A stretch of DNA of 64,000 bases, from assembly GCA_028279765.1 (NCBI GenBank), contig JANQND010000009.1, forward strand, positions 65,198 to 129,197, given 5' to 3'. The first letter of the stretch is position 1; each line of letters starts with the position of its first letter. Position numbers and translations under genes: made by a program. Below are positions 617-64,000 of this stretch, in pieces. The notes under the pieces are model-generated. The model was not told the DNA's origin and ran no database searches. It saw only the letters and a program-made list of their open reading frames with translations. The DNA comes from Candidatus Nanoarchaeia archaeon. Its GTDB lineage: Archaea; Nanobdellota; Nanobdellia; Woesearchaeales; WJIZ01.

Positions 617-1969
617 ATGTCACAAGAAAAAATTATTACAAGGGGTCCAGAATTCTTCCCCAACATTCCAAGAATCAACTATGAAGGTTCGGACAGCAAA
701 AATCCTTTATCCTTCAAGTGGTACAACCCGGTTCAGAAGGTTGGCGGCAAAACCATGAAAGAACACCTGCGGTTTGCCATCTCCTATTGGCACACCATGC
801 AGGGAGAAGGCCGGGATATTTTTGGTAATCCCACGGTTGTGCGTCCTTGGAATACTGCATCTGATGCCAAGCAGCGTGCCGCAGATACTGCCAATGCCGC
901 TTTTGAATTCTTTACTAAAATTGATGCCGGATATTACTGCTTCCATGATGCGGATGTCATTGAAGAGGCAGGTAATCTGAGGGAATCCAATGAAAGAATT
1001 GATTTCATTGTTGGTATCTTGGAAGAACTGCAAACTGAAACCGGCATTAAATTGTTATGGAATACGACCAATCTTTTTTCAAACCCGCGATTCATGGCCG
1101 GTGCGGCGACCAATCCGGACGCCAGTGTCGTTGCTTACGCGGCAGCGAAAGTGAAAAAAATGCTCGAAGTCGGCAGCAAACTTGGCGCAGAAAATTATGT
1201 TTTCTGGGGTGGCCGCGAAGGCTACGAAACCCTGATGAACACCGATATGCAGCGCGAGCTTGACCACATGGCTAAGTTCCTCTTTGGTGCTGTTGATTAT
1301 GCAAAGAAGATTGGTTTCGATGCCCAGTTCCTGATTGAACCGAAAGCCATGGAGCCATCCAAGCATCAATATGACCACGATGCCGCGACCTGCTTAAATT
1401 TCCTGCGTGAGTATGGTCTGATGGATTATTTCAAACTGAACATCGAAGCGAACCACGCTACCTTGGCAGGCCACAGCTTTGAACATGAACTGACCGTCGC
1501 CTCCAATGCCGGTATGCTTGGCAGTGTCGATTCCAACCGCGGTGACGTTCTGCTCGGTTGGGACACCGATCAGTTTGCCATCGAATTTTATGATACCGCC
1601 CGTGCCATGATTGTCATCCTCAATCAGGGCGGCCTGGGCAGTGGTGGCTTGAACTTCGACGCGAAACTTCGCCGAGGTTCAACCGATTTGGAAGACCTGT
1701 TCATTGCCCACATCGGCAGTATGGATGCGTTTGCCGTGGGTCTTCTGGTTGCGGAAAAATATTTGGCCCGACACAAAGAAATCCTGGCTAACCGCTACAA
1801 TTCATTTGATAGCGGTATCGGCGAACAATTCGAATCCGACAATATTGATTTTGAAGCCTTTGAAAACCACGCACTGAATAATCCTGAACCTGTAACCATC
1901 AGCGGCAAGCAGGAATTGCTGGAAAATGAATTCAACGGTATCCTTAATGATGTGATGAAGGCAGCATAA
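617..1969 (+). CDS. xylA: Xylose isomerase (class II, ~450 aa)
   Basis: Full-length match to the xylose isomerase family, with FHD/WGGREG/EPKP-type conserved blocks (YYCFHDADV, FWGGREGY, LIEPKAMEP). The gene is visibly GC-richer than its neighbours. Confidence 0.9.
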   Translation: MSQEKIITRGPEFFPNIPRINYEGSDSKNPLSFKWYNPVQKVGGKTMKEHLRFAISYWHTMQGEGRDIFGNPTVVRPWNTASDAKQRAADTANAAFEFFTKIDAGYYCFHDADVIEEAGNLRESNERIDFIVGILEELQTETGIKLLWNTTNLFSNPRFMAGAATNPDASVVAYAAAKVKKMLEVGSKLGAENYVFWGGREGYETLMNTDMQRELDHMAKFLFGAVDYAKKIGFDAQFLIEPKAMEPSKHQYDHDAATCLNFLREYGLMDYFKLNIEANHATLAGHSFEHELTVASNAGMLGSVDSNRGDVLLGWDTDQFAIEFYDTARAMIVILNQGGLGSGGLNFDAKLRRGSTDLEDLFIAHIGSMDAFAVGLLVAEKYLARHKEILANRYNSFDSGIGEQFESDNIDFEAFENHALNNPEPVTISGKQELLENEFNGILNDVMKAA

Positions 1970-17544: not shown

Positions 17545-18786
17545 TTACTTTATTTTCTCTATGGATATTTTTTTTGCGCGCTCTTTAATATAGTTATCCC
17601 TTGCAAGAGATGCAAACAGCGCGTCAGGAGTCCTGTAGGCTCTTTTCTCCCTCGCATAAAGAATTTCTTTTTTCTCAAAGACATCCTTATGCTTTTTCCT
17701 GAAATCATCAGCAAAAGACTTTCGTTTGGCAGGCGGACCGCTAACAACTCTTTCTTCATCCAGCTCTTTACCATCTACCGTAAAGTATAGCAACGCATCA
17801 TCTATCCACTCCCACTGAGCATCAATCACATCGAACTCATATTCCTGCAGCCTCTGAAGTATGTGGTGATAACATTTTACCAGTTTACACCCGATAATAT
17901 CTCCCTTGCCTGCAAGCGGGGTTAATCGAACCATGAACAAATGATTGTTTTTCGCTTTTTTTGTAAGCTCTTTCACATCAATAGGCCTATCATCAAAAAA
18001 ATCTTCCGAGGGCTTCTTAACAAATGCTTTGGCATAAGAAACAATCGCTGCAAACTTCTCCTCACTTACTGCAGCAGCAGCATTTCTGCTCTCCTGAATC
18101 GGATCAATCACAATAAGGGGGCCGGTAGATTTTGCCTTATTCAACTCAAAGAGCACATTCTTCCCCTTATAGAATTGCTCAGTATCAATAACCACTTTGG
18201 GTTTCCACTTTGCAACCGCGCTCACCAATTCAGAAAAACCCTTGTAATGAATCGTAAGTACCTCACAGATATACCCTGAAAACCCGGCAATGTACGATTC
18301 AGCACCATACACTTTCGCTGCCTTGAAAAACTGTTTAGTGAGCCGAATTTCGTCTGCATACTGTTTGTGCTTTTTCACCCATTGCGCATGCAGTGGAGAA
18401 GCATCGGTAATATTAAACGCCTTGTCTGCTTTGCTGATCTTAATGATCGGCACGATCTCAAACGTATATCCTTCGTGCGTTGTCTGAAAATAATCTCGCG
18501 ATCCATGCAGGCGCTCAACAGTAAATAATTTCTGAAGTTTTTTTTCCAAAATATCAGAAATATTTTTCTCTTTATACTCCGCAGCAGGAAACTGCACAAA
18601 AATATCAAAATCATGCGCTTCCCGAAGCCAGGTGCCTTTCTGGCCTGAGCCGCCAAGAATCACCTTGCATTGCGGAAGAGATTTTTGGATCTTCTCGATA
18701 AATCCTTTCGTCTTGCCGACGATTTCCTTCTCTTCTTGGGCAGACGGCTTAATACGCGCAAGAACCTCATCAAGCAATGATTTCAT
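17545..18786 (-). CDS. cca: Archaeal class I CCA-adding enzyme (tRNA nucleotidyltransferase)
   Basis: VILGGSGQKGTWLREAHDFDIFVQFP Pol-beta NTase motif. Length and layout match the archaeal CCA enzyme. Confidence 0.8.
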   Translation of the reverse strand: MKSLLDEVLARIKPSAQEEKEIVGKTKGFIEKIQKSLPQCKVILGGSGQKGTWLREAHDFDIFVQFPAAEYKEKNISDILEKKLQKLFTVERLHGSRDYFQTTHEGYTFEIVPIIKISKADKAFNITDASPLHAQWVKKHKQYADEIRLTKQFFKAAKVYGAESYIAGFSGYICEVLTIHYKGFSELVSAVAKWKPKVVIDTEQFYKGKNVLFELNKAKSTGPLIVIDPIQESRNAAAAVSEEKFAAIVSYAKAFVKKPSEDFFDDRPIDVKELTKKAKNNHLFMVRLTPLAGKGDIIGCKLVKCYHHILQRLQEYEFDVIDAQWEWIDDALLYFTVDGKELDEERVVSGPPAKRKSFADDFRKKHKDVFEKKEILYAREKRAYRTPDALFASLARDNYIKERAKKISIEKIK

Positions 18787-18860
18787 AACTTAGATAGGCG
18801 CTAATTCGTTTAAAAACTTTTGTATGGAGGAATTAGTACAGCAGGGGTCTTTCTAGTAAG

Positions 18861-18947
18861 CAACAACAATGGCGCTGGCAAGCTTAGTCTCTAAGCTTGA
18901 GATTTTGCTTTAGCAAAATCGGTCAGCCTGCCATTATTGTTGTTGTT
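18861..18947. repeat. Structured double-hairpin repeat element, copy 1
   Basis: AACAATGGCGC ... CAAGCTTAG TCT CTAAGCTTG ... GATTTTGC TTTA GCAAAATC ... GCCTGCC..TGTTGTTG. The second copy lies at 63805-63888. Confidence 0.55.
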
Positions 18948-18974: not shown

Positions 18975-20927
18975 TTACTCTCCCTTAAACACCCGCCTAT
19001 AGAACGCAGCCTCTTTGGTCAGCGCATCAATATTATTCTCTTTCGTTCGAAATCCATGAGCCTCTCCTTCATATTCGATATATTCATGCAGAATCCCTTT
19101 TTCTTTGAGAATCAAGGCCATTTCCCGCGAACAGTCAGGCGTTACGATCTTATCTTCTGATCCCTGCAATATAATCATCGGAGCTTTTAATTTATCAAGA
19201 TGATTAATCGGAGAGCGATCTTTATATTCCTGCTCACTCTCAGACAACCGGGGACCGACAAGGTTTTCTATGTATCTGGCCTCAAACTTGTGTGTCTGCT
19301 CTACCAGCGTAATCAGGTTTCCGATGCCAAAGTAGGATGCACCAACAGCAAAGAGATCAGGATACTCAGTGAGTTCGCGCTGCACCATATATCCGCCTGC
19401 ACTTCCTCCCCGAATAGCGACCTGTGAACCATTGACTAGACCTTTCTCAGCCAAATGGGTGACCGCATCAGCAACATCCTGCGCATCAATAAGGCCCCAC
19501 TTTGCTAGCAAAGCATCTCGGTATGCGCGCCCATATCCCGTGCTTCCCCGATAATCAACATCCATGATCGCATACCCCGATGAAGTCCAGAATTGTTTTA
19601 TCAGGGAAAACGCCCCTGAGGTATTGCTTGTGGGGCCACCGTGAGCGAGCACTAATAGCGGAGGCTTTTCTTCAGCGGGAGCAGTATAAAAACTATTTTT
19701 TGGAAGAGATAAATATCCATATGCCTTTTCACCATCTTTCGTCGGATACGAAACCAGCTCTGCCCTACTCATTTCTTTAACAGTAATAGAACTATTCTTC
19801 CTGATAACCTCCACTTTCTGGTCAGCTAAATCTATGCGAATAACACTCGGGCCTTTTTCAGCACTGCTTCCGATACAGATAACGTCTCCAACAGCAGTCA
19901 CCTGAACGTATGCGAAGTGATCGTACCCTATATCAACAACCCGGGCCTTTTTGCTTTGCGGGTCAATAACTATCAATTCATCTGACCCTTTATTCTTTTT
20001 TGTAGCAACAAGGGTATTATCAGCGAAAAAACTATACGAAGACTGGCCAAAGACCCAATGAGGAGCCCCATATTCTGCTAAATCAGAGGTAACCGGTTGG
20101 ACAGTATTGTTATCGTAGCAGTAGATATTCCACCAGTTCTTCGGGTCTGCCTCTTCTTTCCCTGCCTCATCCATCACAAAATAAAGAACACCGTCAGCAT
20201 CAAATTTAGGATGGCAAACAGAAATCCCCTCTCCTCCGGCAATGATTTTTTTGCTTGAAACCGTAATACCATCAACCTGCGCCGAAACAAGCTCGGTGCT
20301 ATCCCAGGGCATATGAGGATGATTCCACTCTAACCAGGCAAGCTTTTCACTCTTATAAAAAATAGGGTCAGCATAGAAATCACGGCCTGAAGCAATAATG
20401 GTTGGCTCTCTAACTGAGCTATCACTCAAATCAAGAGCTCCGATAAAATTCTCATTTTCTTTCTCTGCATGCTCTTTTTCATACACAAAGACCAGTGTCT
20501 TTCCATCTTCGCTCACGCAAAGCGAGGCATACTTTCCCAAAGAACCATCTTTATTTTTTTCCGGCGTTAAAGCAATAACTTCGGATCCGTGCTGCTTGTA
20601 GAGGCGCTGATCCTCGAAATTGACAAAATAAACAATTCCTTCATGGACAGTATACACACCGCCACCATACTCATGAACTCTGCTGCGAACAGTATAGCCT
20701 GGAGGGGTGATGTCTATCATTTCCCCTCTCTCATCGCGCTTCACGATTACGTACCTGCCTTTATCTGCGATTCGCAGCTCTACCCAATATACAGTGTTAC
20801 CATCAACAACAATCTCGCTGAGCCCGACAACATCAGAAAATACCTGCTCGGCACTAACAAGTGGCTTCCAGTCCAGAAAGGATGCTTGCGGCATTTTATC
20901 GCTGTACGAACTCCTTGTCTGTCTCAA
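18975..20927 (-). CDS. S9-family serine peptidase (acylaminoacyl/prolyl oligopeptidase-like) with N-terminal beta-propeller
   Basis: Catalytic GGSAGG nucleophile elbow, C-terminal alpha/beta-hydrolase region with a His. The start may be the internal M (about 20894). Confidence 0.75.
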   Translation of the reverse strand: MRQTRSSYSDKMPQASFLDWKPLVSAEQVFSDVVGLSEIVVDGNTVYWVELRIADKGRYVIVKRDERGEMIDITPPGYTVRSRVHEYGGGVYTVHEGIVYFVNFEDQRLYKQHGSEVIALTPEKNKDGSLGKYASLCVSEDGKTLVFVYEKEHAEKENENFIGALDLSDSSVREPTIIASGRDFYADPIFYKSEKLAWLEWNHPHMPWDSTELVSAQVDGITVSSKKIIAGGEGISVCHPKFDADGVLYFVMDEAGKEEADPKNWWNIYCYDNNTVQPVTSDLAEYGAPHWVFGQSSYSFFADNTLVATKKNKGSDELIVIDPQSKKARVVDIGYDHFAYVQVTAVGDVICIGSSAEKGPSVIRIDLADQKVEVIRKNSSITVKEMSRAELVSYPTKDGEKAYGYLSLPKNSFYTAPAEEKPPLLVLAHGGPTSNTSGAFSLIKQFWTSSGYAIMDVDYRGSTGYGRAYRDALLAKWGLIDAQDVADAVTHLAEKGLVNGSQVAIRGGSAGGYMVQRELTEYPDLFAVGASYFGIGNLITLVEQTHKFEARYIENLVGPRLSESEQEYKDRSPINHLDKLKAPMIILQGSEDKIVTPDCSREMALILKEKGILHEYIEYEGEAHGFRTKENNIDALTKEAAFYRRVFKGE

Positions 20928-34874: not shown

Positions 34875-37800
34875 ATGCATGGGACTCCCTTGAAGGGATG
34901 GCGTAAACGAGCTTCCATCGCTAGGGCTGCCGTACTCTGCTTAGCGCTAGCTTTGATCACGAGCGCGCAAGCATTTTCTACGCTACCAGGAGTAATTTCT
35001 GATGCGGCTTCCAATGGAATTCATGTGTACAGTCGAATAGGAATACCCATTCAAGGATTAGAAGTAGGGTCTTCTAGCAACGGATTATTCGGGAGAGGAT
35101 TTGTCGTCAGTAATAATCAGGGCGAAGGTGTCGGAGCATCTTCGAGCGGCATACTCGTTAGGGCAAAGGTAAAAACCATAAATGCACTGAAACCGATATC
35201 AGCCGCATCCTCGAATGGGATTTCAGTCAGGGGTTCTATTCAAGTAATTTCGAATTCTGAACCCGGAACAGGTGCAAGCGCAAATGGAATTCTGGTCAGA
35301 GGAACTCTTTTGACCATGGATAAGAAAATGCCAAAGAGTGGCGCACTATCGAATGGAATCTATGCAGTGGGATCCATTGCAAATACAGCAACCCTCTCTC
35401 CAAGAACTGCCTCTTCGTCTAATGGAATTAATGTAGTAGGTAGGTTTAACTTAGGTATTAATGATCCGCCAATTGTATCCGCCTCAAGTAACGGAATTAA
35501 TACCCGGGCAAAAACCTATCTTCGTGATGCATTGATGCCTATTACTGGAGCAGGATCTAACGGATTATCAGTAATAGCTGATATCGGAACTCATGGAGGA
35601 TCTTCGACCACCAACGGTATAAAGGTTTTAGGAGTAGTAAGAAAAACCGCTGATCCTGCGGAATTTGATGGAGACACAGGTGCTGCATCTAATGGTCTCT
35701 TTGTCCTCGGAACACTAGACAAGGGAAACATCCAGCAATCGGGAGCATCCTCCAACGGAATCCATGTGCAGGGATTAATCAACACTGATTCGACAGGAGA
35801 GGAGGGAACGGTCATCGGTATTGAAGTATCAAGTGGTGCAACGAGCAATGGTATTAGCGTAAACGGCACTCTGAGTACTGGCAGCATGATAAATCCACTA
35901 ACTGGCGCCTCCTCAAATGGGTTATTCGTGCAGGGAATTATCAGAGCAGTTGACGAGTTATATCCAGCGACTGCTGCAAGCTCAAACGGAATAGCGGCTA
36001 GTGGAACAATGATTGATTTATCCAACTCAGACGATTCCGGAGCATCAACAAACGGAATCGTTATATCTGGAACGCTCGTAACCGATCAACCTTCGCTCTG
36101 CGAAGAATTTGGCTTGCATGTACTCTTCGGTGAAGTCTCATGCTTCTGTGGTGATGGTCGATTAGATGATGATGAGCAATGCGATGACGGCAACGATAAC
36201 AATAATGATGCCTGTACGAACACTTGTCAGTTGGCAACATGCGGTGACGGATATCTTCAAGGATCCGAGCAATGTGATTTCGGATCAAATAATAACGATG
36301 CAGGAGCCTGTACTACGTCCTGTGAATGGGGACCTCAGTGCAGCGTAAATGAATTCTATAAGCTCATTCCTGAACATACGCTGGCAACGGACATAGAAAT
36401 GAGAGAATGCGGATACATACTCGCTGCAGAAAATTCCATTGACCCCATGTTTTCAGAATTTGATCATAAAGGAGAATTCATCCAGTCAAAAATAATTGAA
36501 ACCGCCGGGAATTCCAATTGGTATCATCCCCTGCAAAAAAGCATTAAAACATCTGATGGCGGCTATTTAGTGCTGGGTATTTCACATTATTATCAAATAT
36601 TTATAGCAAAACTGGATCAAAATTACGTGTTGCAGTGGGAACAATCCATCGATACCTCCGACGATCAAATTACCTTGGTGGATGTCATTGAAGATCATGA
36701 GGGGAATTTTGTTGCATCGGGAACAAATAATAACTATAATGATTTCCTGCTCTATAAGTTCTCATCTGACGGATCCTTGATATGGAGAAAAACTCTCTCT
36801 GCTCTTGGTGGAGGAGATGGAATTGGTTACTCCATTGAGCAGGATGAAGACCACAATTATGTTGTAGTCGGAGTAAAACAGCATGATATAGCCATAGATG
36901 CCCACGGAATCTATGTAGGGAAATTTGACATGAATGGGAACCAGATCATCAGCAAATATCTCTATGATGATCCATTAAAACGATATGTAGCACGAGATTT
37001 CATCATCAACGAAGACTCTTCTATCACCATCGCAGGCTACGTAAGAGAAAATAGTATATCAAACCCAACAGACTCTCTTCTTATCACGAAGTTCGATACG
37101 AACTATGATCCGGTGTGGTCAAGGACCATTGAAACTCAGCAAGGATTCAAGAACTTTTTTGCAACCTCTATTACTCATGCACATCAGGGAGGGTATGTAG
37201 TAGTCGGAGGATTAAGCGGAGCAGATGATGTACTGCCTTATCATCACTTTGATAGTCTGCAAAATGGCCAGAAGCTTATCACCGCAGTCTTTGATGAAAG
37301 CGGAAACCTACAGCACTCGTACACTACCTTAAACGAATTCACCGTAGCAAATGATATTGAGCAGCACCCTATGGGAGGGTATGCAATTGCAGGCCAGGCA
37401 CAAACTGGTGCTTTATTGGTAAGGACAAACAATCTGGGCAATGTGACCTTCTGCAACGATTGGGTTGATCTCTCTCTTTCATCAAATTCCATTACTCTTT
37501 CAAGCATAAATCCCATTGCCTCTCAGGACGATACTCTCAGCTTAATAATAACCGTAGATGGAACTCCTATTACTGATCATAGCATCACCAGCGATACTTT
37601 CATTTGCTACATCGAACCCAACATCTGCGGTAATGGGTTCCATGAACCTACAAACGGGGAGCAATGCGATGATGGAAACAATATTGACGATGATAGCTGC
37701 TCAAATACCTGCGTGGCACAATGCGTTCTCTCATCAGCACAATGGATCTATGCGGATAATTCTATGGTAACCAGCCCGGTTCAGGGATGGGAAGCAGGCA

Positions 37801-39308
37801 GAGATAACACCCTAAGCCAAACCGTCTACATGGAGGCAATAGGAAATCATTGCGCAGGTGAAGACATTAATTACACGATTTACGAGGATGATGTATTCTT
37901 TGATGACTTCGTTGATAGCCTCTTAGCAGTGTACAATACCTATCCTGTTTGGCAGCCTCCTTGGTATAACGATGCATTATTTCCTCTCATCTTTACAGAA
38001 AATCCACAGTATTACTTCGTTGCAGAAGATCCTCTTGGGAACCAATTGCAATCCCAAACTCTTGAAATTACTCGGCCACCAGAACTGGTTGGATCACTTT
38101 GCGGGAATGGTATCCTCGACTTTGGAGAAGAATGCGATGAGGCAGGACTAAATACCGATACTGCATGTACTCCAGATATTGGAGAGCAGTGCCACTACTG
38201 TAACACCACCTGCTATAACATCACGCTTGGGACTATTGAATGCCATCTCTTTGATGTAGAAATCTCTCTAAACCCAGCCAACGACAACAATTTCAACGGT
38301 CTTGCTGATGAAGGAGATATCATCACCATTAATGCAACAATTAACCCGAATTGTCAGGATGCAGACCGAATCCTTGTGGAAGCATCCTCGATAGACAATT
38401 CCTGCACAATAATACCGGGAGCATCAGCAATCATTGATGCCATGAACGAAACCATTACTATTACTCAGGGAGATTCCTCAGCCATAACAGAATGGACAGT
38501 GCCGTCCATACCTGCAGAATGCCAGGGAAAAACAGTGAATGCGCAAAGCGCGGCGCTCTATAGCGACACCAGTCAGGCACCGGTAGGGTCAACACTCAGC
38601 ACCCCGTCCGGTTCATTCACCTTTGCAGGCGCTGTTTGCGGCAATGGCCTTCCGAATTCAGGTGAACAATGCGATGACGCAAATTCGAACAATAGTGATT
38701 CCTGCATCATTGACCCTCTGAACGGATATGAATGCAAGGATGCGTTTTGTGGTGATAACTATACCCGTTCAGGATTCGAACAATGTGATGATGGAAACGC
38801 CATTGATACAGATTCCTGTACCAGCTCCTGCCAGATTGCATTCTGTGGTGATTCAATTATTCAAAGTGGAGTAGAAGAGTGTGACGACGGAAATATTCAA
38901 AGCGGTGATCGCTGCTCAAGCACTTGCCAGTATGAGGCGAGCTTTATCTGGAATGAGAAGAATGAACAAAGAGAAGCGGTGCTGATATTAGGATTAGAAA
39001 AGGATATTAGTGGTGACTGGCAGGATTATCTCATCGTCTTTAACAGCTCAAGCGACATCTCCTCTCTGATTACCTTTGAGGATAAAACCACCATTGCAGA
39101 CGATGCACCGGTGGATCTCAGCCAATTTGAATCCTATGAGAGCAGTTATCATTTACTGAGCTATTACTGGAACCATACGGGATGGACTCCGCAGCCCGGA
39201 GATGAGGGAACCTACCGGGCATTCCTGGAACTGCGCGACAACATTAACGAAGTCATCGAAATTCAGGGCAGTGATAGAATCTATTCAAACAGTTTCACCG
39301 TCTCATAA
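34875..39308 (+). CDS. Giant secreted surface protein (1477 aa). Domains: N-terminal 'ASSNGI' tandem repeats, Myxococcus-type cysteine-rich repeats, and a beta-propeller-like middle
   Basis: Signal peptide. About 18 periodic repeats with x[AS]SSNGI.V.G spacing of about 20-25 aa (DNA about 35010-36075). At least 7 C-G[DN]G......E[QE]CDDGN......C...C units, as in the Myxococcus cysteine-rich repeat. Recurrent G.Y.VVG strands. Confidence 0.6.
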   Translation: MHGTPLKGWRKRASIARAAVLCLALALITSAQAFSTLPGVISDAASNGIHVYSRIGIPIQGLEVGSSSNGLFGRGFVVSNNQGEGVGASSSGILVRAKVKTINALKPISAASSNGISVRGSIQVISNSEPGTGASANGILVRGTLLTMDKKMPKSGALSNGIYAVGSIANTATLSPRTASSSNGINVVGRFNLGINDPPIVSASSNGINTRAKTYLRDALMPITGAGSNGLSVIADIGTHGGSSTTNGIKVLGVVRKTADPAEFDGDTGAASNGLFVLGTLDKGNIQQSGASSNGIHVQGLINTDSTGEEGTVIGIEVSSGATSNGISVNGTLSTGSMINPLTGASSNGLFVQGIIRAVDELYPATAASSNGIAASGTMIDLSNSDDSGASTNGIVISGTLVTDQPSLCEEFGLHVLFGEVSCFCGDGRLDDDEQCDDGNDNNNDACTNTCQLATCGDGYLQGSEQCDFGSNNNDAGACTTSCEWGPQCSVNEFYKLIPEHTLATDIEMRECGYILAAENSIDPMFSEFDHKGEFIQSKIIETAGNSNWYHPLQKSIKTSDGGYLVLGISHYYQIFIAKLDQNYVLQWEQSIDTSDDQITLVDVIEDHEGNFVASGTNNNYNDFLLYKFSSDGSLIWRKTLSALGGGDGIGYSIEQDEDHNYVVVGVKQHDIAIDAHGIYVGKFDMNGNQIISKYLYDDPLKRYVARDFIINEDSSITIAGYVRENSISNPTDSLLITKFDTNYDPVWSRTIETQQGFKNFFATSITHAHQGGYVVVGGLSGADDVLPYHHFDSLQNGQKLITAVFDESGNLQHSYTTLNEFTVANDIEQHPMGGYAIAGQAQTGALLVRTNNLGNVTFCNDWVDLSLSSNSITLSSINPIASQDDTLSLIITVDGTPITDHSITSDTFICYIEPNICGNGFHEPTNGEQCDDGNNIDDDSCSNTCVAQCVLSSAQWIYADNSMVTSPVQGWEAGRDNTLSQTVYMEAIGNHCAGEDINYTIYEDDVFFDDFVDSLLAVYNTYPVWQPPWYNDALFPLIFTENPQYYFVAEDPLGNQLQSQTLEITRPPELVGSLCGNGILDFGEECDEAGLNTDTACTPDIGEQCHYCNTTCYNITLGTIECHLFDVEISLNPANDNNFNGLADEGDIITINATINPNCQDADRILVEASSIDNSCTIIPGASAIIDAMNETITITQGDSSAITEWTVPSIPAECQGKTVNAQSAALYSDTSQAPVGSTLSTPSGSFTFAGAVCGNGLPNSGEQCDDANSNNSDSCIIDPLNGYECKDAFCGDNYTRSGFEQCDDGNAIDTDSCTSSCQIAFCGDSIIQSGVEECDDGNIQSGDRCSSTCQYEASFIWNEKNEQREAVLILGLEKDISGDWQDYLIVFNSSSDISSLITFEDKTTIADDAPVDLSQFESYESSYHLLSYYWNHTGWTPQPGDEGTYRAFLELRDNINEVIEIQGSDRIYSNSFTVS

Positions 39309-42084: not shown

Positions 42085-43428
42085 GTGTACTTAATGAACA
42101 AAAAACTATTGCTAATCAGCCTATGTATAACCGTATTTCTCATTTCTGCATGCGAACAGCAAGCGGCGACAAATGACGTTGCGTTTGTTCCTATTGATCA
42201 AATCCAGGTGGAAGAAGATCAGCAGACAGAATATATTTCTACAGAGCAGGATGCAGGCCAAATGGATTCTGAAAAAGAAGAGGGAATGAAAGAAGATTCC
42301 ATGGAAGGCCATATGATGGACGATGCAGGCATGGAAAAGGAAGATGCCATGCAGGATTCCGGAACCGAAATCATTGTTGAAGACGGTATAATCATTGAAG
42401 ACACCCCCTTAGAAGGCGGGCAGGAAGATATTACCAATGACGGAATTGTTATAGAAGATACTCAGATTGCGCAGGCTGTCGAGAGCGGCGATACCGAAAC
42501 GATTGATCTCACCACTATTCCTGTGGAAGAGGACGCAGCTGAGGATGACCATGACCATTCAGCCGATCATGTGCATGATGAAGAGGATCATATGGACGAT
42601 ACAACCATCGCAGTCGTTGAAGAAACAGAGCCAGCACCACGGGAAATCGTCCTCATTGTGCAGGAAACTGACTTGGTAAACGTTCAGCCTGTCGCTAATG
42701 ATCCTGACCAGGACAAGCTGGAATTCACCTACAGTAGTCCTTTGAACAGCCAGGGAAAATGGCAAACGACCTATGGTGACCAGGGTGAGTATACTATCAC
42801 TATTACTGCATCCGACAGTGAATTAACAACTTCGCGTGATGCTCTGCTCATCGTAAACAAGAAAGAAGAGCTTCCGGTGATCTCCATCCTTGCTCCGGTA
42901 GGAGAGATGGCACAGGAGATCAACGAGAACTCCGACCTGCAGTTCACTATTAAAGCATCTGACCTAAATAAGGATCCGCTCACTTATATGTGGAAACTTG
43001 ATGGGGAAGTGGTCTCTGTTGACGAAAACTACAAATACGAAGCAGATTATAATAGCGCAGGATCACATACGATAAAAGTGGATGTATCAGACGGCACCTC
43101 TACGGTCTCTGAACTATGGGCAATTACGGTCAACAATGTTGACCGCCCGCCAGTGCTCAAGGTGATCCCTGATGTCACAGTAAAAGAGACGGAAACAGTA
43201 GTGATCACCCCTGCAGCAACCGATCCTGATGGGGATGAAATCACCTACACTATCTCTGATCCGGTTGGTGATTCAGGAATCTGGGAGACGACCTATGATA
43301 GCGCAGGAGTGTATACGGTGACTGTTGCAGCATCTGATGGTGAACTGGACGATAGCCAGCAGGTCAAAGTAACGGTTATTAATGTGAACCGTGCTCCGAT
43401 CATCGAAGATATTATCCAGGTGCAATAA
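42085..43428 (+). CDS. Secreted protein: acidic repetitive N-terminal region plus about four cadherin-like/Ig-like beta-sandwich repeats
   Basis: Signal peptide plus lipobox-like LISAC. Repeats with DPD[QG]D.L.[FY]TY......G.W.TTYD..G.YT..V.ASDG, ending in VN[NK]VDRPP / VNRAPI. Confidence 0.5.
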   Translation: MYLMNKKLLLISLCITVFLISACEQQAATNDVAFVPIDQIQVEEDQQTEYISTEQDAGQMDSEKEEGMKEDSMEGHMMDDAGMEKEDAMQDSGTEIIVEDGIIIEDTPLEGGQEDITNDGIVIEDTQIAQAVESGDTETIDLTTIPVEEDAAEDDHDHSADHVHDEEDHMDDTTIAVVEETEPAPREIVLIVQETDLVNVQPVANDPDQDKLEFTYSSPLNSQGKWQTTYGDQGEYTITITASDSELTTSRDALLIVNKKEELPVISILAPVGEMAQEINENSDLQFTIKASDLNKDPLTYMWKLDGEVVSVDENYKYEADYNSAGSHTIKVDVSDGTSTVSELWAITVNNVDRPPVLKVIPDVTVKETETVVITPAATDPDGDEITYTISDPVGDSGIWETTYDSAGVYTVTVAASDGELDDSQQVKVTVINVNRAPIIEDIIQVQ

Positions 43429-43458
43429 GCTTCCTGCATCTGGTGTGGGGGAGAGCGC

Positions 43459-45393
43459 ATGAAAAGATACATGCTTTTCATTTTTTTTTCTTTATTATTC
43501 TCTGTTATTGCTAGCTCTGCAACCATCCTGGAGTTTGAGGAAACTGACTATATCAATCTGCGGCCAAAAGCAGTTGATCAGGATAATGATTCCCTGAGCT
43601 ATTATTTTGACCGCCCGCTGACCACTGAGGGAACCTGGCAGACAACCTACGGGGATGAAGGCGTATACAACACTAAGGTATCAGTAACTGACGGCAGGCT
43701 GGTGACTCAAAAGAACATTACCCTTATCGTAAATAAGAAAGAGGAGTCACCGCAGATCAGCATTCTGGCCCCGCAGGGAGAACACATCTACATAGAAGAG
43801 TCAAAATCAATCTTTTTTAATATTCAGGCATCAGACCTTAATAAAGACGATTTGAGCACCGAATGGTTCCTTGACGGTGAAAAAGTATCAGAAGGAAATT
43901 ATTTCACCTATGCCTCTGATTTCTATAGCCAGGGAAACCACACTATTGCAGTTGAAGTACATGACGGAGTAAATACCGTTGCTCAGAGCTGGGAAGTAGA
44001 GGTGCAGGATGTTGACCGCACTCTTTTGCTTGACGAATTCAAAAGCATGACGGTTAACGAAACCGATATTGTTGTACTCAGCCTGCCTGACTTTGCAGCA
44101 TTTGACCTGTTCTATAATATCAGTTCTCCATTTGAGAGCGAAAACAAATGGGAAACAACCTATGATGACGCAGGAGTATACACTATTGCGGTAACTATCT
44201 GGGATAACAGGGAATTCAAGGCAGTAAAAACCTTCAAGATACTGGTAGAAAATGTTGACCGGCCTGCAAATCCTTTATCGGAGAATACCTATTGGATATC
44301 TGAAAACGAGCAGCTCATTATTTCTCTCAATTATACAGACCCTGATGGTGATGCAGTAAAAACTGAAGTGGGCGGCCTGCCACGCGGAGCGAAAATAGAG
44401 AGGGACGAGCTCATATGGACACCCTCTTATGAATACGTAACTAAAGAAAATTTCATTGATGATATTGCCAAGAATTTTCATGCCATGAGCAGAACACTCT
44501 CTGTTCAGGTAAACGCTACCTCCAGTAATCTGCGGTTAACCCAGCCACTTCATATCCGGGTATTTGACTCTAATCTACCTCCGGTATTAGAGCCAATTAA
44601 TGATATAACAGTTACGGAAGGGGAGGCTGTGTACTTCAATCTCTCTTCCTTTGATCCGGATAATGACACCATCTCCTATTCCTTTGACGGTATTATCAAT
44701 AAAGACGGCTATCAAACAGCACAGGGAGATGCAGGAACATACTATGTTACTGTCTGGGCAAATGATGGGTTTCTGAAAACCCAAAAACGTGCAAAAATAA
44801 CCGTTCTTGCTGCCAACTCTCCTCCTGTTATAGATGCTATTGAGGACCACCAGGTAAACGAAGGAGAAGTGCTTGAAATTTCACTGCGCGTGCAGGATAC
44901 AGAGAACGATAAGATTTCCTATTCCACAAATCCTGTTCTTGACGGGTCCTATTTCCAGGGAAGCACATTTATCTGGAAGCCAAGCCATGAGGTGGCATCA
45001 CAGGATAATCCGAAAATCATTGATCTGGAATTCTTCGCAAAAGACGATGCAGGGTCAACATCCCAGAAAACATCAATAACCGTGAATGACGTAAAGCGCC
45101 CTTTCTCACTTACTCTCTCGAGCCAGATTGATGGTGAAACCTTTTACGTAGGAGACGAAATTCCTCTTTTTGTAGAGGTATTTAACCCTGACAATCTTGA
45201 GCTTACTTACCGATGGAAAATTTCCTTGTTTAATTCCATAGAAGCAAACAATTCGTTGATCGTAGTCTACGACAAACCGGGAAAAAAGAAAGTCTCGGTG
45301 CTAGTCTCTGATGGGGAGCAAACACTCGATAGAGAGTGGGAATTCAGGCTTGAAAAGCGGCCTGAAGTAGAACTGGCAGGCCTCAATACATAG
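43459..45393 (+). CDS. Secreted protein with about six cadherin-like/Ig-like beta-sandwich repeats, paralogous to the preceding gene
   Basis: Signal peptide. The same DxDxD / TTYGDEGVY / VDRP repeat grammar. Confidence 0.5.
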   Translation: MKRYMLFIFFSLLFSVIASSATILEFEETDYINLRPKAVDQDNDSLSYYFDRPLTTEGTWQTTYGDEGVYNTKVSVTDGRLVTQKNITLIVNKKEESPQISILAPQGEHIYIEESKSIFFNIQASDLNKDDLSTEWFLDGEKVSEGNYFTYASDFYSQGNHTIAVEVHDGVNTVAQSWEVEVQDVDRTLLLDEFKSMTVNETDIVVLSLPDFAAFDLFYNISSPFESENKWETTYDDAGVYTIAVTIWDNREFKAVKTFKILVENVDRPANPLSENTYWISENEQLIISLNYTDPDGDAVKTEVGGLPRGAKIERDELIWTPSYEYVTKENFIDDIAKNFHAMSRTLSVQVNATSSNLRLTQPLHIRVFDSNLPPVLEPINDITVTEGEAVYFNLSSFDPDNDTISYSFDGIINKDGYQTAQGDAGTYYVTVWANDGFLKTQKRAKITVLAANSPPVIDAIEDHQVNEGEVLEISLRVQDTENDKISYSTNPVLDGSYFQGSTFIWKPSHEVASQDNPKIIDLEFFAKDDAGSTSQKTSITVNDVKRPFSLTLSSQIDGETFYVGDEIPLFVEVFNPDNLELTYRWKISLFNSIEANNSLIVVYDKPGKKKVSVLVSDGEQTLDREWEFRLEKRPEVELAGLNT

Positions 45394-49052: not shown

Positions 49053-49143
49053 GCCCGAGTAGTATAATGGATAGAATACCTGGTTGCGGAATACTATTCA
49101 ATGCAAAATCCAGGAGATCGGAGTTCAATTCTTCGCTCGGGCA
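49053..49143 (+). tRNA. Intron-containing tRNA, anticodon tentatively GCG (Arg)
   Basis: 7-bp acceptor stem GCCCGAG/CTCGGGC, D arm GTAT-AATGGATAGA-ATAC, anticodon stem CCTGG/CCAGG enclosing a 26-nt loop (TTGCGG plus about 19-nt insertion at 37/38), T arm CGGAG-TTCAATT-CTTCG, discriminator A. No encoded CCA. Confidence 0.55.
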
Positions 49144-51093: not shown

Positions 51094-51273
51094 ATGAAAA
51101 TGTGCAATTGCAGGCAATGCAATAACGAGATAGCAGGGGATGGTAATACGACCATTGTCCTTTGTTCCTTTAAGCAGGGTCCGGTTCATTTGGGCTGTTG
51201 CCTAAATACATGCAGCTGGGATCAAAGACCCTGCGAGCATTCAAGGGGCATCTTCGAGAAGATCGGTGATTAA
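51094..51273 (+). CDS. Small Cys-rich ORF (59 aa, 8 Cys), possible Zn-binding protein preceding nrdD
   Basis: MKMCNCRQCNNEIAGDGNTTIVLCSFKQGPVHLGCCLNTCSWDQRPCEHSRGIFEKIGD. Stop TAA lies 3 nt before the nrdD ATG. Below the 60-aa cutoff of the ORF track. Confidence 0.3.
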   Translation: MKMCNCRQCNNEIAGDGNTTIVLCSFKQGPVHLGCCLNTCSWDQRPCEHSRGIFEKIGD

Positions 51274-51276
51274 GAG

Positions 51277-62759: not shown

Positions 62760-63788
62760 ATGGAACCAAAAGCCTGTTGTCATTGCGCGCCAAAACCCTG
62801 GTATAGGGAAAAACTGTTCTATATTGTAGTCCTTACCATAGCCCTTCTCGTTCTCTCTTACAATGTCACCCTTCTCCACCCTTTCTTTGACACTTTCATG
62901 GATTATCTTAAAATCATCTGGTGGGCAATCCTCCTAGGAATTCTTGTTAGTGGTATCATCGAACACTATATTCCTCAGGAATACATCATGAAATACCTCT
63001 CTCAACACAAAAAACGAACGATTCTCCATGCCACACTGTTTGGATTCTTAATGACGGTATGCTCCCACGGCGTTCTTGCTATTGCTATTCAACTCTATAA
63101 GAAAGGAGCATCCATTCCTGCAGTCGTAGCATTCTTGCTCGCATCACCCTGGGCAAATTTTACCATGACTATACTATTGTTTGGTTTCTTTGGTCTCAAG
63201 GCACTCCTTATTATCTTCTCAGCAATTATCATAGCAATCATTACCGGACTAATCTACCAACTGCTGGAAAAAAAGAAACTCATTGAACAAAGCAAGCCAG
63301 TAACGATGAGCAATAATTTCTCTATTCGAGCAGACCTCAAAAAACGCTACAAGAACTACCGCTTTACCCTGGAAGCAGTGCAAAAAGATGTAAAGGGAAT
63401 TTTAAGAGGATCAAAAGACATCTCTAAAATGATCTTATGGTGGATACTCATAGGAATGATCCTCGCATCAGCAGCCGGGGCTTTCATTCCGGTGCACATC
63501 TTTCATCAGTACATGGGCCCCACAATCATCGGATTACTTATTACCCTAGCAATCGCAACCGTGATCGAAGTGTGCTCAGAAGGGTCATCGCCGCTTGCCT
63601 TTGAAATCTATCGGCAAACCGGCGCTTTGGGAAATTCTTTCACCTTCTTAATGGCAGGAGTGGCAACAGATTATACGGAAATAGGCCTTCTCTGGTCAAA
63701 TATTGGAAAGAAAACAGCATTATGGCTTCCGATTATCACCGTACCGCAGATACTGGTTTTTGCGGTTGTATTTAACGTGGTTTTCTAG
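62760..63788 (+). CDS. Predicted permease (COG0701/DUF318-like; Cys-rich N-terminus)
   Basis: 8-10 TM helices in two halves. N-terminal CCHC. Confidence 0.5.
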   Translation: MEPKACCHCAPKPWYREKLFYIVVLTIALLVLSYNVTLLHPFFDTFMDYLKIIWWAILLGILVSGIIEHYIPQEYIMKYLSQHKKRTILHATLFGFLMTVCSHGVLAIAIQLYKKGASIPAVVAFLLASPWANFTMTILLFGFFGLKALLIIFSAIIIAIITGLIYQLLEKKKLIEQSKPVTMSNNFSIRADLKKRYKNYRFTLEAVQKDVKGILRGSKDISKMILWWILIGMILASAAGAFIPVHIFHQYMGPTIIGLLITLAIATVIEVCSEGSSPLAFEIYRQTGALGNSFTFLMAGVATDYTEIGLLWSNIGKKTALWLPIITVPQILVFAVVFNVVF

Positions 63789-63804
63789 TGCTATTTAACT
63801 AGGC

Positions 63805-63888
63805 AAAAACAATGGCGCAGACGAGCTTAGCCTCTAAGCTCGAGATTTTCTGAAAGAAAATCGCTCTGCCTGCCCCTGTTGTTGTTGC
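63805..63888. repeat. Structured double-hairpin repeat element, copy 2
   Basis: AACAATGGCGC ... CGAGCTTAG CCT CTAAGCTCG ... GATTTTCT GAA AGAAAATC ... GCCTGCC..TGTTGTTGTTG. Both stems differ from copy 1 by paired, compensatory substitutions. Confidence 0.55.
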
Positions 63889-64000
63889 CGACAAGAGCTA
63901 CTAACCTTCATTTTCTCCCTTATAAATATCTTCTAAAGATTTATATACTATAACTTCAGAGTAGTACAAAACAAGCAATGGAGGTAATACTCATGAAAAA

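Follow-up and report, generated by a model that had tools for sequence, protein, structure and literature searches.

The window, by which we mean the whole 64-kb stretch of DNA that was analysed, is chromosomal DNA of a DPANN archaeon. Its class I CCA-adding enzyme has its best homologues, at only 60% identity, in entries named Woesearchaeota/Nanoarchaeota, and other genes of the window code for SRP54, Rpb7, S24e, a family B DNA polymerase, NrdD and a hydrogenase. Genes for a transposase, an integrase or a reverse transcriptase are absent from the 64 kb. The stretches 34875-39308 and 42085-45393 encode a 1477-aa DUF4215-repeat protein and two PKD/Ig-domain proteins, which are likely surface proteins of a kind that is common in DPANN genomes.

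Two intergenic spacers of the window carry copies of one structured element, designated c1 and c2 (Table 1). The first lies between the genes of an archaeal CCA-adding enzyme and an S9 prolyl-oligopeptidase-family protein and is antisense to both, with a TTTAAAAA box at 18811-18818, between the start of the CCA-enzyme gene and the element. The second follows an ArsP-type permease gene in sense orientation and stands 95 nt before the next gene (start 63984).

Table 1. Positions of the element, its parts and the neighbouring genes; numbering is that of the window unless a contig is named.
Feature	Position	Strand	Details
Archaeal CCA-adding enzyme gene	17545..18786	-	start 72 nt from c1
Copy 1 (c1), entire element, 89 nt	18859..18947	+	covariance model and MFE
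c1 closing stem, 5' strand	18859..18878	+	pairs with 18923-18947 (MFE and consensus structures)
c1 5'-strand segments	P1 18859-18870; P1b GGC 18871-18873; P1c 18874-18878	+	
c1 hairpin P2, CAAGCUUAG-UCU-CUAAGCUUG	18879..18899	+	fold
c1 hairpin P3, GAUUUUGC-UUUA-GCAAAAUC	18901..18920	+	fold
c1 junction GG and closing stem, 3' strand	18921..18947	+	fold; GG = 18921-22
c1 3'-strand segments	P1c 18923-27; CU 18928-29; P1b GCC 18930-32; 3-nt bulge 18933-35; P1 18936-47	+	
S9 prolyl-oligopeptidase-family gene	18975..20927	-	stop codon 28 nt from c1
tRNA-Phe(GAA)	49053-49143		~22-nt insertion near anticodon loop, consistent with an archaeal intron
ArsP-type permease gene	62760..63788	+	stop 13 nt upstream of c2, same strand
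Copy 2 (c2), entire element, 88 nt	63802..63889	+	covariance model and MFE
c2 closing stem	63802-63821 / 63865-63889	+	CU bulge 63870-71; 3-nt bulge 63875-77
c2 hairpins	P2 63822-63842; P3 63844-63862	+	
L124 copy (c3)	L124 776-692	-	arm scan; closing stem near-identical
L134 copy (c4)	L134 8-146		139 nt in covariance-model alignment

An earlier note on this DNA, made from the sequence alone, had placed the two copies at 18861-18947 and 63805-63888 and described each as shared flanks around two adjacent hairpins. Both copies, their flanks and their hairpins are indeed present, and the hairpin arms had been quoted exactly, every difference within an arm being matched on the opposite arm. The limits had to be revised to those in Table 1, and the flanks are not merely flanks. 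The flank AGCAACAACAATGGCGCTGG base-pairs with the flank TCAGCCTGCCATTATTGTTGTTGTT, so that each copy forms a closed three-way junction with two hairpins, rather than two free hairpins. Read along the + strand, a 12-bp helix (P1; in c1, AGCAACAACAAU / AUUGUUGUUGUU) is followed by a 3-nt bulge, a GGC/GCC helix, a CU bulge and a 5-6-bp helix leading into the junction, where 0, 1 (A) and 2 (G-N) bases are unpaired. The closing stem as a whole comprises ~20 bp and carries two conserved bulges, both on the 3' strand. In c1 and c2, hairpin P2 has 9 bp and the loop YCU, and hairpin P3 has 8 bp and a loop of 3-4 nt; in c1 the two are separated by a single A (18900). The element is 85-140 nt long, with a G+C content of 43-50%.

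A covariance model (R1) built from c1 and c2 scored these copies at 107.1 bits (E 6e-29) and 103.4 bits (E 7e-28), respectively. With filters off, no score above 14 bits was obtained in the rest of the 64-kb window, and no third copy was found there by nhmmer. The two copies are 89% identical across the 89 element columns and 82% identical over a wider 130-nt alignment. Their minimum free energies are -41.6 kcal/mol (c1, z -7.4) and -39.1 kcal/mol (c2, z -5.9), and for both strands the folding z-scores against dinucleotide shuffles lie between -5.8 and -7.8. When 100-nt windows were folded along both strands of the 64 kb (~12,800 in all), the element windows ranked first and third in stability, at -41.6 and -40.9 kcal/mol versus a mean of -17.7 (sd 5.6), and c1 was the lowest-energy window of the entire stretch. 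The observation of two copies is real, and chance is excluded. Another very stable fold in the window, at 51151-51250, is accounted for by a ~59-codon Cys-rich ORF (MKMCNCRQCNNE...) at ~51100-51275, directly upstream of nrdD.

Further members, which the earlier note had proposed to look for, were found in other samples. A stringent exact-pattern scan of 241 million JGI metagenome records matched the conserved arms in one metagenome contig, L124; a contig from another sample, L134, represents the same locus with nearly identical flanks. The closing stem of the L124 copy (c3) is 85-89% identical to those of c1 and c2, and its hairpins differ from theirs in sequence yet pair (CGGUUUUA/UAAAGCCG and GCUUUCC/GGAAAGC). 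The L134 copy (c4) shares its arms and P3 with c3, and its P2 is enlarged by 53 nt of inserted sequence forming two extra hairpins; the 138-nt stretch folds at -63.9 kcal/mol (z -9.2). Altogether, the family comprises 4 sequences from 3 independent loci, which show the pattern of covariation and are too few for a formal test of the R-scape type.

In the four-sequence alignment, 99.3% of the pair cells are paired and 8 pairs are changed on both sides. The covariation score was reached by none of 500 shuffles, and only 36-59% pairing was obtained in controls in which the partner was slid. RNAalifold independently recovered the same structure with 9 compensated pairs. A comparison of c1 with c2 shows 5 pairs in which both partners differ: two in P3, one in P2, one in the inner closing helix and the terminal pair. 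There are also 3 G-U/G-C or G-U/A-U switches and 1 mismatch, and whatever else differs is confined to loops, bulges and the junction. Within the closing stem of these two copies, the compensations replace U-A by A-U at columns 18/67 and the terminal G-C by A-U. Across the family, 4 of the 9 pairs of P2 are altered on both sides, the CU bulge is invariant in 4/4 sequences, and the junction A and G are also invariant in this alignment. Compensatory changes show that the fold of the element is kept by selection. The earlier claim of selection for secondary structure, made from two copies, is thereby borne out in a larger alignment, and neither of the two sequence-level outcomes that the earlier note had named as speaking against it was observed: more copies exist, covariation is present, and no Rfam family and no described terminator or MITE family is matched.

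Identity between the copies is distributed as a mosaic. The arms and the interior agree at 36/47 and 34/42 positions between c1 and c2, at 40/47 and 21/42 between c1 and c3, and at 42/47 and 24/42 between c2 and c3. The arms are accordingly 77-89% identical between loci and the interior is 50-57% identical when c1 or c2 is compared with c3, which argues that the closing stem is constrained in sequence and the hairpins are constrained only to pair.

At the metagenomic locus, in both L124 and L134, the element lies between the GluRS gene and a gene for a 61-aa histone-fold-like protein with a TATA box; it is in sense orientation, ~190 nt past the GluRS gene. At all three loci the element is situated between a stop codon and the TATA region of the next gene (28, 13 and ~190 nt from the stop). 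Its orientation is independent of the neighbouring genes, c1 being antisense and c2 and the L124 copy sense. Gene callers and ORF finders produced a spurious 37-aa partial call across the element (L134 1-111, - strand) and a spurious 88-aa ORF abutting its 3' edge (L124 423-689, - strand; the same 88-aa version is recorded as P0136, on a 29.9-kb JGI contig). A second conserved structure, distinct from the element, was observed downstream of GluRS in two related organisms (L124 ~800-850, - strand, and L133 420-462), where the stem GTCCGCCT/AGGCGGAC is kept and a 20-24-nt loop differs.

Comparison with relatives revealed a patchy distribution. Beside the CCA-enzyme gene, the element is absent in three relatives (L117, L118 and L123), in which the spacer measures just 64 nt. 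In these relatives the 64-nt spacer separates the CCA-enzyme gene from a divergent AP-endonuclease-family gene, at the place where the window has the S9 gene and c1, which suggests that the S9 peptidase gene is also a lineage-specific arrival there. At the GluRS locus, the element is absent in L133, whose 61-aa protein is 85% identical, and in L125 and L132 (82%). In L133 its place is taken by an unrelated stable hairpin with a T7 run behind it, and a 101-aa ORF is found at this locus in L125; relatives whose 61-aa protein is 65% identical have a 51-nt spacer without the element. This patchy presence indicates that the element sits in lineage-specific extra DNA and that its gains or losses are recent on an evolutionary scale. 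A clean pair of filled and empty sites was not found amongst these loci: where the element is missing, its place is taken by unrelated sequence, and the spacer of L124 is too diverged from those of L133 and L125.

Broader searches returned few candidates. Two copies were found in the 64 kb plus ~7 kb of extensions, and by this count and the single matching JGI contig the copy number appears to be low. In ~190 kb of DPANN DNA, the four-sequence model found no further copy save a weak match at L117 509-648 (17 bits, E 0.014). This candidate combines a 16-bp A/U-rich closing stem with two hairpins, has a folding energy of -52.5 kcal/mol versus -42.5 on the other strand, and is possibly a distant relative of the element. 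It is surrounded by ~430 nt of intergenic DNA of a Nanoarchaeota MAG (L117 380-810) made up of nested palindromes (-151 kcal/mol, z -13), including a 42-nt direct repeat at 421-462 / 732-773 and a 31-nt inverted repeat at 470-500 / 682-712. About 1 kb from this palindrome region lies an IS that encodes a DDE_Tnp_1_6 transposase; its 34-nt terminal repeats are unrelated to the ends of the element. A loose pattern, CAATGGCGCN{40,65}GCCTGCCN{2,6}TGTTG, gave at least 113 chance matches in the genome collection, nearly all bacterial, and none of the matches listed fits the HMM of the element. Amongst viral contigs, 120 matches to a 16-mer all lacked the 3' arm, so no real copy was found, and blastn against plasmids and phages returned no match to the element.

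The element was also compared with described RNA families. Across the whole window, tRNA was the only Rfam 15 family at the gathering threshold, and a permissive Rfam scan of both loci reached at best 16.8 bits versus a threshold of 57, with all E-values above 0.8. The element is not a tRNA, as ARAGORN and the Rfam tRNA model find just the tRNA-Phe in the window; a hairpin, GTGCGGC..GCCGCAC, lies just downstream of this tRNA gene. A literature search that included literal sequence strings retrieved nothing matching the element and no described MITE or terminator family. On these sequence comparisons, c1 and c2 are members of a small, lineage-restricted and undescribed family of Y-shaped intergenic elements of Woesearchaeota-type (DPANN) archaea.

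Several known classes of element were considered and rejected. The REP/REPIN-RAYT type does not fit an element of this length and base composition with a three-way junction, and no IS200-like gene occurs in the window. A palindromic element derived from IS200/IS605 was set aside because the sequences of P2 and P3 show no relationship and the element has long inverted termini. The copies are not attL and attR of an island, as the 45 kb between them holds housekeeping genes and their identity over the wider alignment is too low. A box C/D sRNA was rejected because the AUGAUGA beside c1 is missing from c2, a K-turn because there are no tandem G.A pairs, a bulge-helix-bulge splice site because both bulges are on one strand, a hammerhead or other ribozyme core because of the near-absence of unpaired junction bases, and a DGR template/variable repeat pair because the differences are not adenine-specific.

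Signals of transcription were suggestive: by sequence they fit some copies and are inconsistent across the family. Upstream of c2, TATTTAAC begins 34 nt from the 5' end, a spacing like that of the window tRNA-Phe, where TATTTAAAAA begins 32 nt upstream, and TTTATT is found at -25 in the L124 and L134 copies. No TATA-like box at a suitable distance and no downstream T-run were seen for c1, and the promoter-like boxes look convincing only for c2. T-runs are a terminator signal in archaea. A T11 (L124) or T8 (L134) run starts 12 nt after the metagenomic copies, and c2 has only a T4, 22 nt downstream, and no adjacent T-run. Within the element, P2 is followed by AGAUUUU, and a consensus terminator scan flagged this internal P2+UUUU site. 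Elsewhere in the window, two tandem hairpins at 1995-2030 and 2053-2095 follow the gene 617..1969, each succeeded by a T-run (GGAGGAAG..CTTCTCC+T7 and GAAAACCCAA..TTGGGTTTTC+T8), and this archaeon appears to place hairpin/T-run signals of bacterial style at some gene 3' ends.

The strand on which the element might act was assessed from its asymmetry. In + orientation, the extra, bulged bases are always on the 3' arm. The folding energy is lower on the + strand by 4.6 kcal/mol in c3, 3.2 in c4 and 9.4 in the L117 candidate, and 8 pairs of the + strand are broken on the - strand versus 3 in the reverse case. Judged by G-U pairs and energies, this preference is weak: c2 leans the opposite way, and both strands fold almost equally well.

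The three explanations on the shortlist of the earlier note, namely a small non-coding RNA, a terminator or processing module and a MITE- or REP-like element, are still the right ones, and in the forms discussed below they are not mutually exclusive. Our tentative preference is for a non-autonomous structured element of insertion type, with a selected single-strand fold and a closing stem that would be a putative protein recognition site. According to this explanation, the element would be mobile or ectopically copied DNA landing in intergenic spacers. The target of selection would be the fold of its single strand, most probably in the form of RNA once the spacer is transcribed. The bulged, conserved closing stem may then be the recognition platform of a putative protein that moves, processes or binds the element, and the hairpins may be structural filler that stabilises the junction.

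The sporadic presence of the element in otherwise syntenic spacers and in either orientation argues for insertion, as do its conserved inverted termini, with GGCAACAACAATGGCGCAGA of the 5' arm paired to TCTGCCTGCCATTATTGTTGTTGCC of the 3' arm, the occurrence of two copies in 64 kb, and the nesting of the L117 match in further inverted repeats. The insertion in P2 at the GluRS locus is a clean two-hairpin indel between two strains. Against this explanation, no target-site duplication is present at the three loci (flanks TAGTA|...|ATCAT, AACTA|...|GACAA and TATGA|...|GAATG), no transposase is encoded in the window, the apparent copy number is low (1 contig in 241 million JGI records), and a clean empty site was not found. 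A host ncRNA, too, would be expected to show strong purifying selection in all helices and invariant bases at the junction; taken with the invariant bulge, the low apparent copy number and the lack of target duplications, these features suit a host RNA better. Additionally, the TATA-like box of c2 is spaced as it is before tRNA-Phe, and the independent loci number only three.

Among the closest described counterparts of the element are MITEs, of which Neisseria Correia/NEMIS and the Sulfolobus SM-type elements are examples. The resemblance includes a size of ~90-140 bp, intergenic location, conserved arms resembling terminal inverted repeats, a variable interior, sporadic occurrence in either orientation, and the long stem that a transcript would be expected to form. 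The element differs in its lack of target-site duplications and of a cognate transposase and in its apparently low copy number, as well as in its asymmetric arms, bulged on one strand, and in an interior of two hairpins kept by compensatory change. Structured interspersed repeats with covariation at the RNA level are known from bcr1 of the Bacillus cereus group and from ERIC/REP sequences. These share with the present family multiple intergenic copies, compensatory substitutions that preserve a fold, and a status between mobile DNA and functional RNA; they differ in being bacterial and unrelated in sequence. REPs are single hairpins of 20-40 nt associated with RAYT transposases, bcr1 is flanked by TTTAT target duplications, and we know of no repeat of this type with such a three-way junction in archaea.

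Nearly as likely as an insertion-type element is a family of stand-alone small-RNA genes, which we regard as a serious though still doubtful alternative. Each copy would encode an RNA of ~90-140 nt transcribed from its own archaeal promoter, in which the closing stem would bind a protein and the hairpins would stabilise the junction, by analogy with the binding of Y RNA to Ro or of the phi29 pRNA helix to its ATPase. Covariation in every helix and the invariance of the CU bulge and of the junction A and G are consistent with such a gene. It also accords with the rarity and low copy number of the element, unlike prolific MITEs, with its independence from the orientation of neighbouring genes, with the TATTTAAC box of c2, with the T-runs and TTTATT of the metagenomic copies, and with the slight leaning of the fold towards the + strand. 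However, close relatives lack the element in the corresponding spacers, c1 has neither a TATA-like box nor a T-run, c2 has only its T4, the weak strand preference is reversed in c2, and there is no Rfam relative. The tiny, unconserved loops make target pairing unlikely and count against this explanation too.

The analogy can be extended to a class of archaeal element that has not been described before, in which the closing helix would be bound by a dedicated protein and the distal arms would be exchangeable and expandable modules; we consider this unlikely, though it deserves mention. Such a class could be a scaffold of the Y-RNA or pRNA kind, or a mobile element that moves by way of a folded single strand and leaves no target-site duplications. 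Y RNA with Ro and the phi29 pRNA are protein-binding RNAs with a bulged terminal helix and variable arms. As an analogy, the element likewise has paired 5' and 3' ends with conserved bulges, exchangeable distal arms and a compact, stable junction. It differs in that Rfam gave no Y_RNA match and its 3-4-nt loops lack interaction motifs, and no gene for Ro or a packaging ATPase was seen in the window.

Rather improbable, in our assessment, is a cis-acting module of mRNA 3' ends that would be co-transcribed with the upstream gene and would block 3'-to-5' decay or aid termination before the next promoter. The location of all three loci between a stop codon and the next TATA region suggests this role, as does the T-run after the L124 and L134 copies, with L133 substituting another hairpin and T7; hairpin and T-run pairs also follow the window gene 617..1969. 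As both strands fold almost equally, such a module could work in either orientation. The same placement, however, is expected of any element between co-directional genes, c1 and c2 lack an adjacent T-run, and a plain hairpin would be enough, which leaves the bulged conserved stem, the invariant junction and the second hairpin unexplained. Compared with an ordinary terminator of hairpin and T-run, the element is alike in its stop-to-promoter placement and in the T-runs of the metagenomic copies, and different in that c1 and c2 have none and in an architecture far beyond the needs of termination.

Nanoarchaeota/DPANN genomes are reported to contain integrons and attC sites (PMC9668308). A solitary recombination site of the attC type, acting as a folded single strand, is already disfavoured and seems very improbable. 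The element resembles attC sites in its conserved ends, which contain AAC...GTT, its variable centre that keeps the fold, its extra bases on one strand, its variable or branched distal structure and its similar size, and the general design and length are alike. It differs at the core sites RYYYAAC / GTTRRRY, where AGGCAAC and GTTGCCG fail at 2 and 3 of 4 degenerate positions, and in having an uninterrupted 12-bp helix where attC has an R box, an unpaired central spacer and an L box; the copies lie 45 kb apart among housekeeping genes, with no cassette array and no integrase in the window. A tiny leaderless ORF starting at the conserved ATG of CAACAATGGCG is hardly credible: ATGGCG stands at the same place in all copies, but the reading frames are just 14, 13, 7 and 22 codons long and encode unrelated peptides, and the substitutions track base pairing, not codon position.

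To our knowledge, DPANN archaea have small genomes, have hardly been studied by experimental genetics, and have yielded very few descriptions of non-coding elements. The covariance model of the element is ready for census work. If the element were an ordinary MITE-like repeat, its value would be modest, and its recognition would prevent spacers from being miscalled as ORFs or terminators. The element may also offer a tractable entry into archaeal RNA-protein biology, or into a way in which DNA moves without duplicating its target.
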